Below are positions 5,170 to 31,176 of a stretch of DNA of 41,567 nt, piece by piece. Location of the stretch: sequence record NC_019709.1. One strand, given 5' to 3'. Under the pieces are notes generated by a model that ran no database searches, had not been told where the DNA came from, and was given only the letters and a program-made list of their open reading frames with translations. Position numbers and translations under genes: made by a program. Source of the stretch: Escherichia phage mEpX1. Every line of letters starts with the position of its first letter. Positions within the stretch are counted from its first letter, which is position 1.

Positions 5170-5496
5170 ATGGCGATAGATGTTCTGGATGTAATTCCCC
5201 TCAGTCTGTTTAAGCAGCAGATTGAGTTTGAGGAAGACGACAGGGACGAGCTGATCACGCTGTACGCCCAGGCCGCTTTTGACTACTGCATGCGCTGGTG
5301 CGATGAACCAGCATGGAAGGTTGCGGCTGATATTCCTGCCGCCGTTAAGGGCGCCGTTCTGCTTGTCTTTGCTGACATGTTTGAACACCGGACGGCACAA
5401 AGCGAAGTGCAGCTTTATGAGAATGCAGCCGCCGAACGCATGATGTTCATTCATCGCAACTGGCGCGGTAAATCTGAACCTGAGGAGGGCTCCTGA
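5170..5496 (+). CDS. Head-tail connector protein (gp6-like)
   Basis: 108-aa ORF, first gene after capsid; positional and size match. Confidence 0.55.
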   Translation: MAIDVLDVIPLSLFKQQIEFEEDDRDELITLYAQAAFDYCMRWCDEPAWKVAADIPAAVKGAVLLVFADMFEHRTAQSEVQLYENAAAERMMFIHRNWRGKSEPEEGS

Positions 5497-5834
5497 TGGA
5501 ACCTGGACGATTCAGGCACAGGGTAAAAATTCTCACCTTCACGACTTCGCGCGATCCATCTGGTCAGCCGGTTGAATCGTGGACAGGTGGCAACCCGGTC
5601 CCGGCTGAGGTAAAGGGGATCAGCGGCAGAGAGCAGCTTTCAGGCGGCGCGGAAACGGCGCAGGCAACGATTCGCGTCTGGATGCGCTTCAGGTCAGAGC
5701 TGAATGCCTCTTCTCGTCTGGAAGTGCTCAGCGGACCGTATAAAGGTCAGGTGCTAAATATCATCGGTCCTCCTGTAGCAAATTCGACCGGCACTCGCCT
5801 GGAAATTCTTTGCAAAACGGGAGCTGAAAAATGA
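5496..5834 (+). CDS. Head-tail adaptor / head closure protein
   Basis: 112-aa ORF, start overlaps upstream stop; head-tail joining block. Confidence 0.55.
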   Translation: MEPGRFRHRVKILTFTTSRDPSGQPVESWTGGNPVPAEVKGISGREQLSGGAETAQATIRVWMRFRSELNASSRLEVLSGPYKGQVLNIIGPPVANSTGTRLEILCKTGAEK

Positions 5835-6280
5835 TTGAGACGAGCCTCGATTTTTCCGGGCTGAATGACATCGCAAAGGATCTGGAGGCGCTTAGCCGCG
5901 CTGAAAACAACAAGGTTCTGCGTGATGCCACGCGCGCTGGCGCCGAAGTGCTTAAGGAAGAAGTGATCGCCCGCGCGCCGGTGCGCACCGGGAAACTGAA
6001 AAAAAACGTGGTGGTGGTGACCCAAAAAAGCCGCCGCCGCGGGGAAATTTCTTCCGGTGTCCATATTCGTGGTGTTAACCCGCGCACCGGGAACAGCGAT
6101 AACACTATGAAGGCGAGTAACCCAAGAAACGCCTTTTACTGGCGATTCGTTGAAATGGGTACCGCGAACATGCCTGCACATCCGTTTGTGCGACCCGCTT
6201 ACGATACTCGCGAGGAAGAGGCCGCCAGCGTCGCCATTGCCAGGATGAATCAGGCTATTGATGAGGTATTGAGCAAGTGA
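5831..6280 (+). CDS. HK97 gp10-like tail component
   Basis: 149-aa ORF, overlapping stop/start coupling; position in head-tail joining block. Confidence 0.55.
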   Translation: MIETSLDFSGLNDIAKDLEALSRAENNKVLRDATRAGAEVLKEEVIARAPVRTGKLKKNVVVVTQKSRRRGEISSGVHIRGVNPRTGNSDNTMKASNPRNAFYWRFVEMGTANMPAHPFVRPAYDTREEEAASVAIARMNQAIDEVLSK

Positions 6281-6624
6281 ATGAAGATAATATCTACGCC
6301 TTGCTTTCTCCCCTGGCAGAAGGACGGGTATATCCCTATGTTGCGCCATTAGGTAGTGACGGTAAACCGTCTGTCTCTCCACCCTGGATTATCTTTTCCA
6401 TCGTCGATGATGTTTCCGCTGACGTGCTGTGTGGTCAGGCAGAGAGCAGGGTTTCCGTTCAGGTCGATGTGTATTCCACTTCGATCGCTGAATCACGATC
6501 CCTGAGAGATTTGGTGCTCGCTTCGCTTGAGCCGTTAACCCCTACAGAGGTGGTAAAAATCCCCGGGTACGAGCCAGATTATCGGCTCTACCGTGCCACC
6601 CTGGATTTTAAAGTTACCCCCTGA
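6277..6624 (+). CDS. Tail terminator-like protein
   Basis: 115-aa ORF immediately upstream of the major tail protein. Confidence 0.5.
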   Translation: MNEDNIYALLSPLAEGRVYPYVAPLGSDGKPSVSPPWIIFSIVDDVSADVLCGQAESRVSVQVDVYSTSIAESRSLRDLVLASLEPLTPTEVVKIPGYEPDYRLYRATLDFKVTP

Positions 6625-27813: not shown

Positions 27814-28158
27814 CTATGACCATTTTTTATTTGGATTTCGTTGGTGAGCGTGATTAACAACTCTGTGCATTACATCCTCATATTTTTCATCTTCAATTTT
27901 TTCGACATCGCGAGGAAATGGTGTTGCTAATGCTTTGTCAACTTTGTCCATTGGTTCTTCATTAATCTTATATTCAGGACCGTCATCTATAGCATTAAAT
28001 CCAGGTGTTACACCGTTTTTTAATGCATATGCTATCCTTTTTTCCCATCTCGCTATTCTCCTCCTGTCTCGAGATGTAAGACCTCTATCAGATACTTTTC
28101 TGTTTTGTCCGCGGTCAGGATTAACATAAATAGTCTTTTTCACCATAAGCATACTCAA
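27814..28158 (-). CDS. Hypothetical protein
   Basis: 114-aa basic ORF coupled to the N-like gene. Confidence 0.45.
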   Translation of the reverse strand: MSMLMVKKTIYVNPDRGQNRKVSDRGLTSRDRRRIARWEKRIAYALKNGVTPGFNAIDDGPEYKINEEPMDKVDKALATPFPRDVEKIEDEKYEDVMHRVVNHAHQRNPNKKWS

Positions 28159-28460
28159 TAAGCACCGTACGGTAGTTTACTGTACAATTTTATTTTTTGG
28201 ACTGCATGTATTTTGTTTCCTAATGGGTTTGAATCTTTGTAATAAATACTTCTATTTTTTCGAACGACTTCTTCTTTCTTCTTGCAGCAAAGTCTTCCTA
28301 GTGATGCTGCTTTGTCTGCTCTGACGCAACCAGAGAGCTTTAGCGCAATTTTTCGCGCCAGTGCTTCATTACTGCGTCGCTCGGCAATAAGTTCTGCTCT
28401 GCGAGCTTTGTAGCGGCTTTTTGCCGTACCTTTGGATTCTTTCCAGACAATGGTTACCAT
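28155..28460 (-). CDS. N-like transcription antiterminator (Arg-rich motif)
   Basis: First leftward gene after nutL; N-terminal Arg-rich motif KSRYKARRAELIAERR; start ATG 28460 with SD aaggag. Confidence 0.5.
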   Translation of the reverse strand: MVTIVWKESKGTAKSRYKARRAELIAERRSNEALARKIALKLSGCVRADKAASLGRLCCKKKEEVVRKNRSIYYKDSNPLGNKIHAVQKIKLYSKLPYGAY

Positions 28461-28570
28461 GATGGTCTCCTTTAAGTGGCTTTGGCGCATGACGCGTCGA
28501 GGTGCTTATCTTCTCGATCGCTGTCTTGCAGCTGCAATTCGCGCCATCCCCAAAACCACTCAAGTTCTGG

Positions 28571-28610
28571 TCTCAACGGTTAGGTTGAGAGTCCGTCGAT
28601 GTTAAAGAGC
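28571..28610 (-). promoter_or_regulatory. nutL candidate (boxA plus boxB)
   Basis: Minus strand reads GCTCTTTAAC (boxA-like), spacer, then hairpin tctcaac-CTAACC-gttgaga; loop identical to the nutR candidate. Confidence 0.5.
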
Positions 28611-28735: not shown

Positions 28736-28935
28736 TTTGTGTAAATAGTTTTACCCGCGATGGTTTTGCTTACTTAAGTCGGTGGCAACAGCAGGATGGG
28801 TGCTGAAAAGTTCGAAAAACGAGCGAATGGGGTGGTGGCGAGATGGCGGGATATGGGAGTTGTATTAAGAATTATAGTAATTTAATCAATAGTTTGGACC
28901 GGCTGGCAGGTGCTGTCCTGATAGTGATCGGCGGG

Positions 28936-28962
28936 CAATAAAAAACCCGGCGCGGTGGCCGG
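28936..28962 (-). terminator. Intrinsic terminator ending the cI-cassette transcript
   Basis: Minus strand: stem cccggc/gccggg with caccgc loop then ttttttatt, 9 nt after the stop of the 310-aa gene. Confidence 0.6.
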
Positions 28963-28970
28963 GTGAGATA

Positions 28971-29903
28971 TTAAAGAACCGATTTAACAAGATGGTTTTT
29001 ACGGTACAGACCTATGCGATCATTGTGAATCTCAGTAGTCTCCACTAAAAGAGAAACAATCTGTCCGACCTTGTGTTTTTTTTGTATTAAATCTAGCATT
29101 TCAATTGGATAGGAAGCCTTTAAATGTTCACCACCAACATCAAGCTCCAGCTTCCCATATTTGGATAGAACGACCAGTTCGCCTGTAACCGTTTCAGTAA
29201 TGGGAGGGGATGAAATGGTTGATGTAAGTCTACTCACCAAGTACTTAATTTTATTGGAGTCAATAGTTGCCACCTTGGTGCCATTACTAAATGGACCGGT
29301 CCAACTTGCATCAAATGTTAAGTTGTGTTTATCGCATTCCTCTACGATTCTCTTAAGGCTTACAGTGGAATTGTATCCAATTTCAGCGACGTGATTCATG
29401 AAGTTGTTGTCGTCATCGCTTAACAACAAATCGAATATGCCTTTTACAGCCTTGCTGGGTACTGTTTCTACTAATTCTGCTATTCCTGTAGAGAAGGTGA
29501 CGCCCAATTTTGTAGACCCAGGGGATAAATCAGCCAGCCTGAGGTTTAAGGAGCTTTTCACGTCGTAGGGAACTTTTTTTGAGTCCTTGCCTGAGGCAAT
29601 TTTGTGTGTTGCTCTTTGTATTAGCGCTGCAAGATTTGTTGAAATAGCCCCAAGCAGCTCTAAAGGAATAGAGCCAAAGTCAACCTCAGAGCCTTTCAGC
29701 CGCAGCTCAAAAAAATCGATAAGTGGGTGCCGACTATCTTGCTTTAATTTTTCGGCCTTCAAATCGCTCAGATGAGAATCCATGGAGCGATAAAGAAGCA
29801 TGTCAGCAAAAGACCTGGTTTTGTTTTGCTTCATTGCATCGACTTCTTTTTGAATGAAATCAATGCGTTTATCGCAATTTTTAAACATTGATTTATCATT
29901 CAT
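28971..29903 (-). CDS. Hypothetical 310-aa protein, partner of the NTase-like gene (no recognisable motifs)
   Basis: AT-rich ORF; start overlaps upstream stop (ATGA); no TM helices or catalytic motifs seen by eye. Confidence 0.6.
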   Translation of the reverse strand: MNDKSMFKNCDKRIDFIQKEVDAMKQNKTRSFADMLLYRSMDSHLSDLKAEKLKQDSRHPLIDFFELRLKGSEVDFGSIPLELLGAISTNLAALIQRATHKIASGKDSKKVPYDVKSSLNLRLADLSPGSTKLGVTFSTGIAELVETVPSKAVKGIFDLLLSDDDNNFMNHVAEIGYNSTVSLKRIVEECDKHNLTFDASWTGPFSNGTKVATIDSNKIKYLVSRLTSTISSPPITETVTGELVVLSKYGKLELDVGGEHLKASYPIEMLDLIQKKHKVGQIVSLLVETTEIHNDRIGLYRKNHLVKSVL

Positions 29904-30379
29904 AAAAAAATCCTCACTAACCCTTTCGGGTTTTCACTGCGATCAAAACCAAACCAACCGCGCCAGTAGCTACGCCAGTACTCATAATCATAGTTAGGGT
30001 CATCTAAATTCTTCATGAGTAGTAGGACATCAATTTTGTAGTTTTGTTTGATGTAGTTTCGGTCAAGCAAATTATCGACGCGGCCCCGAAGCATGACAGG
30101 TATTGAGTTTATATTGCTATAGTCACATACCAACAAAATATCAATATCATCAGGCTCTGGTTTAGACGTGGTGTATGAACCATCAACCCATATTTCTGTA
30201 AAACAGCCATATTGAGCAGATAATTCTCGAATAGATTCGAGTAGCTGTATAAAATTACAGTATAGCATGCCTCGCCTGGATGATGAAGGAAAGCAATCGA
30301 CACAATACGATTTTAATCCAGCTTCATCCATGTCATGGAACCCTGGCTCAAACAGGGGTGGGTAATTAATTTTATCCAT
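29900..30379 (-). CDS. Small protein with polymerase-beta-type nucleotidyltransferase signature
   Basis: 159 aa; GS-x9-DIDILLV (VDGSYTTSKPEPDDIDILLV) plus a downstream acidic strand (KIDVLLL); AT-rich; SD agg 7 nt before ATG; immediately downstream of cI. Confidence 0.55.
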   Translation of the reverse strand: MDKINYPPLFEPGFHDMDEAGLKSYCVDCFPSSSRRGMLYCNFIQLLESIRELSAQYGCFTEIWVDGSYTTSKPEPDDIDILLVCDYSNINSIPVMLRGRVDNLLDRNYIKQNYKIDVLLLMKNLDDPNYDYEYWRSYWRGWFGFDRSENPKGLVRIFL

Positions 30380-30528
30380 AAAAAACCTTGCTATACATTT
30401 GTTTTTTTTATTAAAAATCTAACCACCGAAATGGTGACGGCAAGATGTTACATGGGGTTACAATCAGCCAATACACCGCATTAAATAATTTTTTCACCAG
30501 CTATGCGCCGACCAGAACACCTTGCCGA

Positions 30529-31176
30529 TCAGCCAAACGTCTCTTCAGGCCACTGCGCCTTAACTACCTTGCCTATGATGCGGCAGCTATGGTCGCAATC
30601 CAGGGTTCTATATGCCGGGTTTAAAGGTACCAGGTAACTAACCCCTGCATCCTTCTCATACTTCTTGAACGTTGCCTCTGAATCACCATTTGCAGAAGCC
30701 ACGCAGAAATCCCCAGACTCTACCGGCTCAGCCGGATCAACGAGTATCAGCATGCCTTCCGGAAAACTTGGACGAACCCCCTGAGGCGCCGTCATTGAAT
30801 GCCCCTTCACCTCAAGCCAGAAAGCTTTTTCGCTGGCTTTTGTGGTCGTTGGGACCCATGCCTTTGCATCGCTGGCTGTGTAGCTTCCCACCTCCGAAAA
30901 TGGCCCGGCCTGCACTGAAGAAAATAACGGGTATTCATATTGGCGAAATACGGCGTCTGAATCCTCGCCAAACATTATTTTTGCCGGAGATACGCCGAGT
31001 GCCGCCCCAAGAACCAGCGCGTCATCCGCGCTAACCTTTCTTGTTCCTAACTCGTAGTTCCCCAGGCGTGAAGGCGCAGCCCAGCCGCAAAGCTTGGCCA
31101 ATTGAGCCTGGCTAAGTCCTTTAGCTTCTCTAAGGGACTTTATCCTTTCCCCGATAATTTCATGCATCGTTTTCAT
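30529..31176 (-). CDS. cI: CI-type repressor (HTH plus S24 LexA-like peptidase)
   Basis: N-terminal HTH ([11 protein letters not shown]), Ala-Gly cleavage site (VQAGP), catalytic Ser (GHSM) and Lys (IGKVV); divergent from cro across OR. Confidence 0.85.

Follow-up and report, generated by a model that had tools for sequence, protein, structure and literature searches.

The cassette and its family

Escherichia phage mEpX1 (sequence record NC_019709.1) carries, between cI and the genes for N and 'Nun', two overlapping genes that we analyzed together with their surroundings. They are called gene A and gene B here, and the whole record of 41,567 nucleotides is called the window. The deposited annotation was taken from record PV340543.1 (Hendrixvirinae, Cuauhtlivirus; lambdoid, E. 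coli K-12), with which the region shares 100% identity and where both genes are labelled hypothetical. The coordinates, lengths and strand in our open reading frame (ORF) list are those that a previous, sequence-only reading of the window had reported, and the ATGA overlap of 4 nt that it described is present.

29900-30379, minus strand: gene A, 159 amino acids (ORF list)
28971-29903, minus strand: gene B, 310 amino acids (ORF list)

The pair had been proposed as an undescribed module in the position that rexA and rexB occupy in phage lambda. The position is right, but the module has a name: almost certainly, the cassette is a member of PDC-M63 lying in the rexAB slot. Protein A matches the Pfam family DUF6932 (PF22014; 87.3 bits against a cut-off of 27), the PADLOC model PDC-M63A (PDLC04744; 1.8e-41, covering residues 1-158 of 159) and PHROG 9194. 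Protein B matches six PDC-M63B models in PADLOC (best 7.5e-45) and PHROG 6603, while no Pfam or NCBIfam family was found for it. The assignments extend to the relatives of both proteins, since DUF6932 was matched by 48/48 members of the A family and PDC-M63B by 110/110 members of the B family. Both component models are thus represented by adjacent, co-oriented and overlapping genes, and the architecture does not differ from that of PDC-M63.

PDC-M63 is a computational candidate and is unvalidated. In the sole published test, PDC-M63AB was deleted from a prophage of E. coli NILS69, and the plating of ten virulent double-stranded DNA (dsDNA) phages was unchanged; temperate phages were not included in the panel. 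No papers on DUF6932, and none that functionally address this region of mEpX1, were found in a literature search. The ratio of nonsynonymous to synonymous substitution rates (dN/dS) is 0.06-0.08 for both A and B where dS is unsaturated, which indicates, at the level of sequence, strong purifying selection on the two genes. Because of this ratio and of the large homologous families, A and B are real genes and not chance ORFs.

Predicted structures of A and B

Protein A can be assigned with confidence, from its motifs and its structural model, to the minimal nucleotidyltransferases (NTases) with the Pol beta fold. The motif formed by G67-S68, nine residues and D78-I-D80-ILLV, followed by K115-I-D117-VLLL, is where the sequence-only reading had placed it. 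Conservation was analyzed over 48 homologs, down to 34% identity: no variation was seen at G67, S68, D78 and D80, and D117 is conserved in 97%. Invariance is not limited to the catalytic core, being also seen in the C-terminal block RSYWRGWFGF (R136-F145) and in E149, K152, G13-F-H15, R36, W64, T71 and K73. In the AlphaFold (AF2) model (predicted local distance difference test, pLDDT, 96.4) the GS...DxD segment falls on an NTase fold, as had been expected. All of the top Foldseek matches in the PDB are NTases, namely 2rff (a putative NTase), the minimal nucleotidyltransferase (MNT) antitoxins 7ae2_B, 7ae9 and 8xeo, CdnC, AAD(9) and Pol beta. These matches are weak (best E 2.9e-3, template-modelling score, TM, ~0.3; for CdnC, E 1.5e-2 and TM 0.37). 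Sub-threshold matches to Polbeta (PF18765), NTP_transf_2 and DNA_pol_B_palm recur in 29-32 of the 48 members, and in its catalytic region the A profile can be aligned to the palm of Pol beta (E 0.16). Protein A is accordingly described, on motif and model, as a divergent minimal NTase of active appearance with family-specific extra elements. Sequence searches for relatives of solved structure, made with A, B and both profiles, returned noise only (a flavodoxin, a keratin coiled coil and an LPXTG repeat).

Protein B is an orphan outside the candidate family. An exhaustive search recovered relatives that form ~200 clusters at 50% identity; almost all have 300-330 amino acids, and none has a name. 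No Pfam family recurs among the 110 members, and fusions or alternative architectures that might reveal an effector were looked for and not found, the relatives being of ~300-330 amino acids without a Pfam domain. The structural model (pLDDT 91.2; predicted TM score, pTM, 0.84) has four predicted parts:

residues 10-57: N-terminal helical hairpin
residues ~62-146 (window ~29466-29720, minus strand): alpha/beta domain, which holds the invariant G129-S130
residues 148-192: helical region
residues ~196-309: mostly beta C-terminal part

The fold matches of B are the oligonucleotide/oligosaccharide-binding (OB) folds of single-stranded DNA-binding proteins (SSBs) and the tRNA anticodon-binding domains of the lysyl- and asparaginyl-tRNA synthetases (LysRS and AsnRS). 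In the model the OB fold probably sits at the C-terminus (~229-309), a placement based on the beta-rich secondary structure, as the fold search gave no matched residue ranges. This domain had been missed in the sequence-only reading, which otherwise described B well: no transmembrane segment was found (hydropathy over 19 residues peaks at 1.38, with amphipathic helices and a soluble protein in the model), and neither were HEPN, nuclease or ATPase signatures in Pfam, in PADLOC or in the conservation pattern. Conservation falls mostly on structural residues (G, L, P and W), with G129-S130 invariant and a few charged or aromatic residues conserved (D63, R68, R122, K132, W201 and Y265); no enzyme-like conserved site was seen. 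The model therefore presents B as a soluble multidomain orphan with an OB-fold domain.

In 20/110 members of the B family, residues 62-146 match the N-terminal part of PDC-M32A, which is also a PADLOC candidate (best 7e-8). PDC-M32A (~376 amino acids) shares in this way the best-conserved domain of B, which points to a common module among candidate defence systems. Proteins of the A family are consistently acidic, and the isoelectric point of B ranges from 4.7 to 9.6 across its family; the charge signature of an acidic antitoxin with a basic toxin was rejected as a family feature on these grounds.

Two rival explanations concern the predicted combination of an NTase with an OB-fold protein. 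In the first, A would constitutively synthesise a signal (a short oligonucleotide or DNA), for which its own invariant Tyr138 might be the primer. The OB fold of B would bind this signal until a nuclease or some other activity of the phage removes it and frees B. The model for such a guard is Hailong, in which the NTase HalB makes a constitutive nucleotide-polymer signal that is sensed by the DNA-gated ion channel HalA, and which is a precedent for an NTase paired with a DNA-binding partner (review PMC13276650). The OB fold of B is of the type that binds single-stranded DNA, and outside its catalytic core A carries numerous invariant residues of basic or aromatic character, Y138 of RSYWRGWFGF among them. 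However, B has no membrane, channel or other effector domain, and an NTase of 159 amino acids without an extra domain is small for a polymerase. Protein A has no match by sequence to solved structures (noise only at E<=10) and no Hailong entry is found among its top 50 fold matches, with the reservation that which entries represent HalB is unconfirmed. We consider a guard of this kind unlikely.

In the second explanation the NTase itself is the effector, as in MenT or AbiEii: A would modify the 3' end of tRNA or another RNA and arrest growth, and B would be the subunit that binds nucleic acid and serves for specificity, sensing or neutralisation. NTases that are toxic through tRNA modification form an established class, the catalytic residues of A are strictly conserved, and the OB fold of B resembles those of LysRS and AsnRS anticodon-binding domains and of SSBs. 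Protein A, however, does not match AbiEii/DUF1814 in Pfam or PADLOC, and the NTase-first gene order is that of MNT antitoxins and not of AbiE. In addition, a prophage with an intact A and an interrupted B (L034, see below) implies that A alone is probably not lethal. An effector role for A is on this balance quite unlikely.

The rexAB slot and the distribution of the pair

The immediate surroundings of the cassette, in which its limits were defined, comprise the following features:

30529-31176, minus strand: cI-type repressor with helix-turn-helix (HTH) and S24 peptidase domains (Pfam Peptidase_S24 3.1e-26, HTH_31 and HTH_3; cI in PV340543.1)
30498-30555, minus strand: left junction, comprising the terminal 27 nt of cI and the next 31 nt, shared with lambda and many repressor alleles
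30380-30497, minus strand: cassette-specific leader of 118 nt, present in loci with this allele and absent from lambda
28934-28964, minus strand: intrinsic terminator (ACCCGGCCACCGCGCCGGGT and T-run) and right junction, t_imm (terminator scan; lambda homology)

As the sequence-only reading had it, cI lies upstream of gene A. It is on the same strand, the distance is 149 nt, and cI is context that stands outside the mobile unit. The junctions were mapped in an alignment of ten loci in which a cassette at least 99% identical is found behind different repressor genes. Conservation starts in the last cI codons (…QWPEETFG and the stop codon) and stops right after the terminator hairpin. On the left, window positions 30555-30498 correspond to lambda 37253-37196 (the end of cI and 31 nt) with 58/58 nt identical, and this junction is kept in the 10 loci with differing repressors. 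On the right, 28964-28934 is 87% identical over 31 nt to lambda 35825-35796, a segment that begins at the rexB stop codon; the hairpin is kept in 10/10 loci and divergence begins directly after it. From these lambda-homologous junctions, the cassette-specific DNA is therefore ~28965-30497, that is, the 118-nt leader with A and B. The terminator attributed to the cassette exists (hairpin and T-run at 28964-28935 in the terminator scan, with the stem at 28964-28945), but it is not the cassette's own. Its homolog in lambda is the terminator that directly follows rexB, and by sequence it belongs to the shared lambda-type immunity framework.

The slot is confirmed by direct replacement. Two IMG/VR prophages (L014 and L015) are 98-99% identical to lambda over cro-cI and over OL/PL-N, and they carry the cassette exactly in place of rexA-rexB (lambda 37195-35826). 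Kinship of A or B with RexA or RexB was rejected, since blastp gave only E>=0.42 and no profile match was found at E<=10.

A consensus scan found no promoter-like site in the 149-nt gap between cI and A, and the whole 3.1-kb region has 2 such sites against 5.3 expected by chance, so that an own promoter in the leader was rejected. A structured leader RNA or riboswitch was rejected as well: no significant RNA structure was found (fold z -0.37), nor any Rfam match at E<=1. Read-through from PRM/PRE into the cassette is the simplest inference. By analogy with rexAB, the pair would be transcribed with cI from PRM (and PRE) and made in lysogens.

The leader has a Shine-Dalgarno sequence (AAGG) 7 nt before the ATG of gene A, and a weak hairpin with a T-run at 30441-30422. 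Its sequence is the same in all loci with this allele, except for the length of an A-tract and for 1-2 substitutions in one locus (L022). The tract, A8 in the window (30409-30402), lies ~25 nt upstream of the start of gene A and has 7, 8 or 9 bases across prophages; this variation may be due to slippage.

Downstream of the terminator, the PL-like promoter and the nutL-like site that had been noticed before were read again in the sequence. The promoter (read without a statistical test) lies between CACA-N-TGTG operator-like half-sites and is followed by CATCAGCAGGACGC, an arrangement also seen at lambda PL. The features in this direction are:

28687-28659, minus strand: PL-like promoter, TTGACC-17 nt-GACTAT (sequence reading)
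28571-28610, minus strand: nutL-like site upstream of N (sequence reading)
28610-28601, minus strand: boxA, GCTCTTTAAC (sequence reading)
28590-28571, minus strand: boxB-like hairpin, TCTCAAC-CTAACC-GTTGAGA (sequence reading)
28155-28490, minus strand: N gene (weak Pfam N_peptide match, E 0.0035; deposited annotation)
27814-28158, minus strand: Nun-like gene, 114 amino acids ('Nun transcription termination factor' in GenBank)

The Nun-like gene comes directly after N, with a 4-nt overlap, so that the two genes, N and Nun-like, apparently stand in tandem in mEpX1. Pfam gave no match for the Nun-like protein, and the GC content at third codon positions of its gene is very low (GC3 = 0.25).

The cassette had been called more AT-rich than the flanking genes. 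This is correct in relation to cI and to the window mean (GC of 0.396 for A and 0.403 for B, versus 0.523 for cI and 0.493 for the whole window), but not in relation to the adjacent N (0.420) and Nun-like (0.368) genes, which are equally AT-rich. Among the related loci described next, the GC content of the cassette is below that of the flanks in 79/80.

Related viral loci were collected by alignment to A and comprise 80 contigs, with A at 29-100% identity. In 80/80 of them B is immediately downstream, usually with the 4-nt overlap, and the pairwise identities of A and B correlate (r = 0.96), a pattern of sequence divergence which indicates that the two co-evolve. A few pairs are discordant. 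In the locus L024, for example, A is 83% identical to the A of the window and B only 63%; this B is 71% identical to the B of four other loci (L050-L053), whose A is only 54% identical to that of L024. To judge from these identities, recombination seems to occur between the genes, with partners from different sublineages being interchangeable and occasionally exchanged.

Whether the pair always follows a repressor gene had been raised in the sequence-only reading, and here the co-occurrence of A and B is general but the position is not. In the enterobacterial group, the gene before the pair is of the S24/HTH repressor type in 53/54 loci with sufficient flank, whereas in distant phages a repressor is adjacent in only 2/23 loci and the neighbours vary (terminase, lysozyme, primase and methylases). 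Among complete E. coli genomes, the mEpX1 allele is found in 18/5,426 and a second allele, with amino-acid identities to it of 62% and 54% for the two proteins, in 98/5,426; all copies are chromosomal, and about 2% of the genomes have one of the two alleles. E. coli CB7286 (L003, NZ_CM144246.1) has both, in two prophages (~2.37 Mb and ~0.23 Mb).

Outside phages, copies also lie among defence genes. In three metagenome contigs (L091-L093) a distant pair of 150 and 310 amino acids is placed inside a type I restriction-modification (RM) operon, in the order hsdM-hsdS-A-B-hsdR (genes at ~4480-12000 of L091), which is followed by a 1580-residue SLFN_AlbA_2 (Schlafen) protein. In another contig the pair is flanked by YoeB/Phd and RM-like genes. 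Three further metagenome contigs (L088-L090, 5591-12466) have a distant A-B pair followed by a 291-residue gene and a DprA-like gene (DNA_processg_A), with baeRF_family3 on the opposite strand; this region may be a larger conflict island. In its linkage and its distribution across phages and chromosomes, the pair behaves like an accessory module that is mobile, self-contained and connected with defence loci.

Natural disruptions affect either gene. In E. coli KL53 (L006, NZ_CP030919.1, 3930-5470) an insertion sequence of the IS4 family, ISVsa5, lies in the 5' part of A, so that the DUF6932 ORF is truncated and B remains intact. In the second-allele prophage L034 it is B that is split (5471-6402, into 5471-6136 and 6211-6402), and A is intact.

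The distribution also bears on whether the module has to do with phage defence. The pair could benefit the prophage itself, either by maintaining it in the manner of a toxin-antitoxin module or by modulating the lysis-lysogeny switch, which has been described as a second role of RexA. This would agree with the NILS69 deletion, which showed no defence phenotype, and with possible DNA binding by the OB fold of B, RexA being a DNA-binding protein. The cassette also shares its slot, and presumably its transcript, with rexAB, whose products influence the switch as well (bioRxiv 10.1101/2021.04.19.439022; PMC11077077). However, the pair occurs in type I RM operons and at non-phage chromosomal sites, where a switch modulator has no role, and in distant phages the repressor is seldom its neighbour, as counted above. 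Moreover, the viable deletion of the whole module in NILS69 and the natural disruptions of single genes argue against strict addiction. Such a function outside defence seems improbable to us.

The pair might instead neutralise host immunity, for example with an MNT-like enzyme, which would inactivate host HEPN toxins or use up a nucleotide signal. It is phage-borne, moron-like and of low GC content, and MNT enzymes, which appear among the PDB matches of A, are natural antidotes to HEPN toxins. Against this, the cassette would be part of a lysogenic and not of an early lytic transcript, the pair is found in bacterial chromosomes within RM operons, and the obligatory partner of 310 amino acids would be left unexplained. 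A counter-defence function is very improbable.

A candidate anti-phage module and its relation to known systems

We favour the reading that the cassette is a lysogen-expressed anti-phage module built on cooperation between the NTase and its partner, and give it a probability of about 0.5. The embedding in RM operons, the YoeB/Phd and RM-like neighbours and the low GC content were counted for an association with defence. In this proposal the pair would be expressed in the lysogen from the cI transcript (PRM, PRE), like rexAB, and A and B would form a complex. Protein A might then act like the MNT of MNT-HEPN and use a nucleoside triphosphate (NTP) to nucleotidylate B, for which the invariant and exposed G129-S130 is the natural candidate site; alternatively, A might modify a nucleic acid held by B. 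The modification would keep the module poised until infection upsets the balance, whereupon the OB fold of B might engage single-stranded nucleic acid (intermediates of phage replication or recombination, or RNA) and block phage development. The lysogen would be protected from other phages in this way, by exclusion or by abortive infection. Action in the manner of MNT is, as we infer, the single most likely mode, but as a specific proposal it is tentative.

Several observations weigh against a defence role, or against this form of it. The NILS69 knockout had no defence phenotype with its ten virulent dsDNA phages, and some chromosomal copies stand alone among housekeeping genes. Protein B has no recognisable toxic or effector domain and its charge is not conserved. 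OB folds are generic, and nucleic-acid binding by B is a prediction from the model. Structurally, A matches MNT weakly, and co-transcription with cI is an analogy taken from lambda. Finally, the disruptions of one gene each, A in KL53 and B in L034, speak against a strict dependency of the toxin-antitoxin kind, whichever way round the roles are assigned.

Should the module prove active, it would be an unusually tractable entry into an uncharacterised candidate defence family: the phage grows on E. coli K-12, the locus is the best-understood regulatory locus in phage biology, and there are natural lambda-immunity prophages that differ from lambda essentially by having the cassette instead of rexAB. 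Its mechanism, once established, could show nucleotidyl transfer put to a new use in immunity, and it would test whether the PDC candidates of PADLOC are real. Inactivity against phages would in turn inform how far "guilt by location" can be trusted.

Among known systems, MNT-HEPN (MntA-HepT, type VII toxin-antitoxin) shares with the cassette a small minimal NTase that is encoded first and a partner gene that overlaps it. Protein A has the GS-x9-DxD motif, MNT antitoxins are among its best structural matches, and most members of its family have the sub-threshold Polbeta (PF18765) match. However, A differs by a ~60-residue N-terminal extension and by the unique invariant block RSYWRGWFGF, and B, with 310 amino acids and an OB fold, has no conserved site of the Rx4-6H type; no HEPN match recurs in the B family in Pfam or PADLOC, where two HEPN models each match 1/110 members. 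The sequence-only reading had kept the pair apart from both MNT-HEPN and AbiE, and it was right to do so, as there is no HEPN partner and no AbiE model match. AbiE (AbiEi/AbiEii) was ruled out by the lack of a model match at E<=1 in Pfam and PADLOC and by different sizes and gene order.

The cyclic-oligonucleotide-based antiphage signalling system (CBASS) was also ruled out. Its cGAS/DncV-like NTases (CD-NTases) have ~300-400 amino acids and are paired with an effector activated by cyclic nucleotides, whereas A has 159, no CBASS model of PADLOC was matched, the match of A to CdnC is weak and B has no effector domain. With Hailong the cassette shares the two-gene pairing of an NTase with a nucleic-acid-binding partner (binding being predicted for B), but B is soluble and lacks a transmembrane or channel domain of the HalA type. 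Neither the sequence searches nor the top-ranked fold matches of A and B brought up a resemblance to a solved Hailong protein.

Lambda RexA-RexB has the same locus, homologous junctions on both sides and the same two-gene layout downstream of cI, and lambda-immunity prophages hold either rexAB or a cassette of the mEpX1 type. There is no sequence similarity between the two modules: RexA, with 279 amino acids, binds DNA and RexB is a small polytopic membrane protein, while the cassette encodes a predicted NTase and a predicted soluble OB-fold protein. The place is a known hotspot, with defences such as BstA found directly downstream of the repressor in lambdoid and P22-like prophages (PMC8585504). 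BstA and other repressor-adjacent defences of one or two genes share the position with the cassette, and their proteins are unrelated to A and B.

It is possible, though doubtful, that the cassette is a mechanistically new immune module, a natural functional substitute for RexAB in immunity regions of the lambda type. In it a minimal NTase would mark its soluble OB-fold partner with a nucleotide or oligonucleotide, or make such a mark for it, and neither HEPN, channel, nuclease nor other known effectors would take part. If so, it would add a new NTase-based defence logic beside those of CBASS, MNT-HEPN and Hailong.

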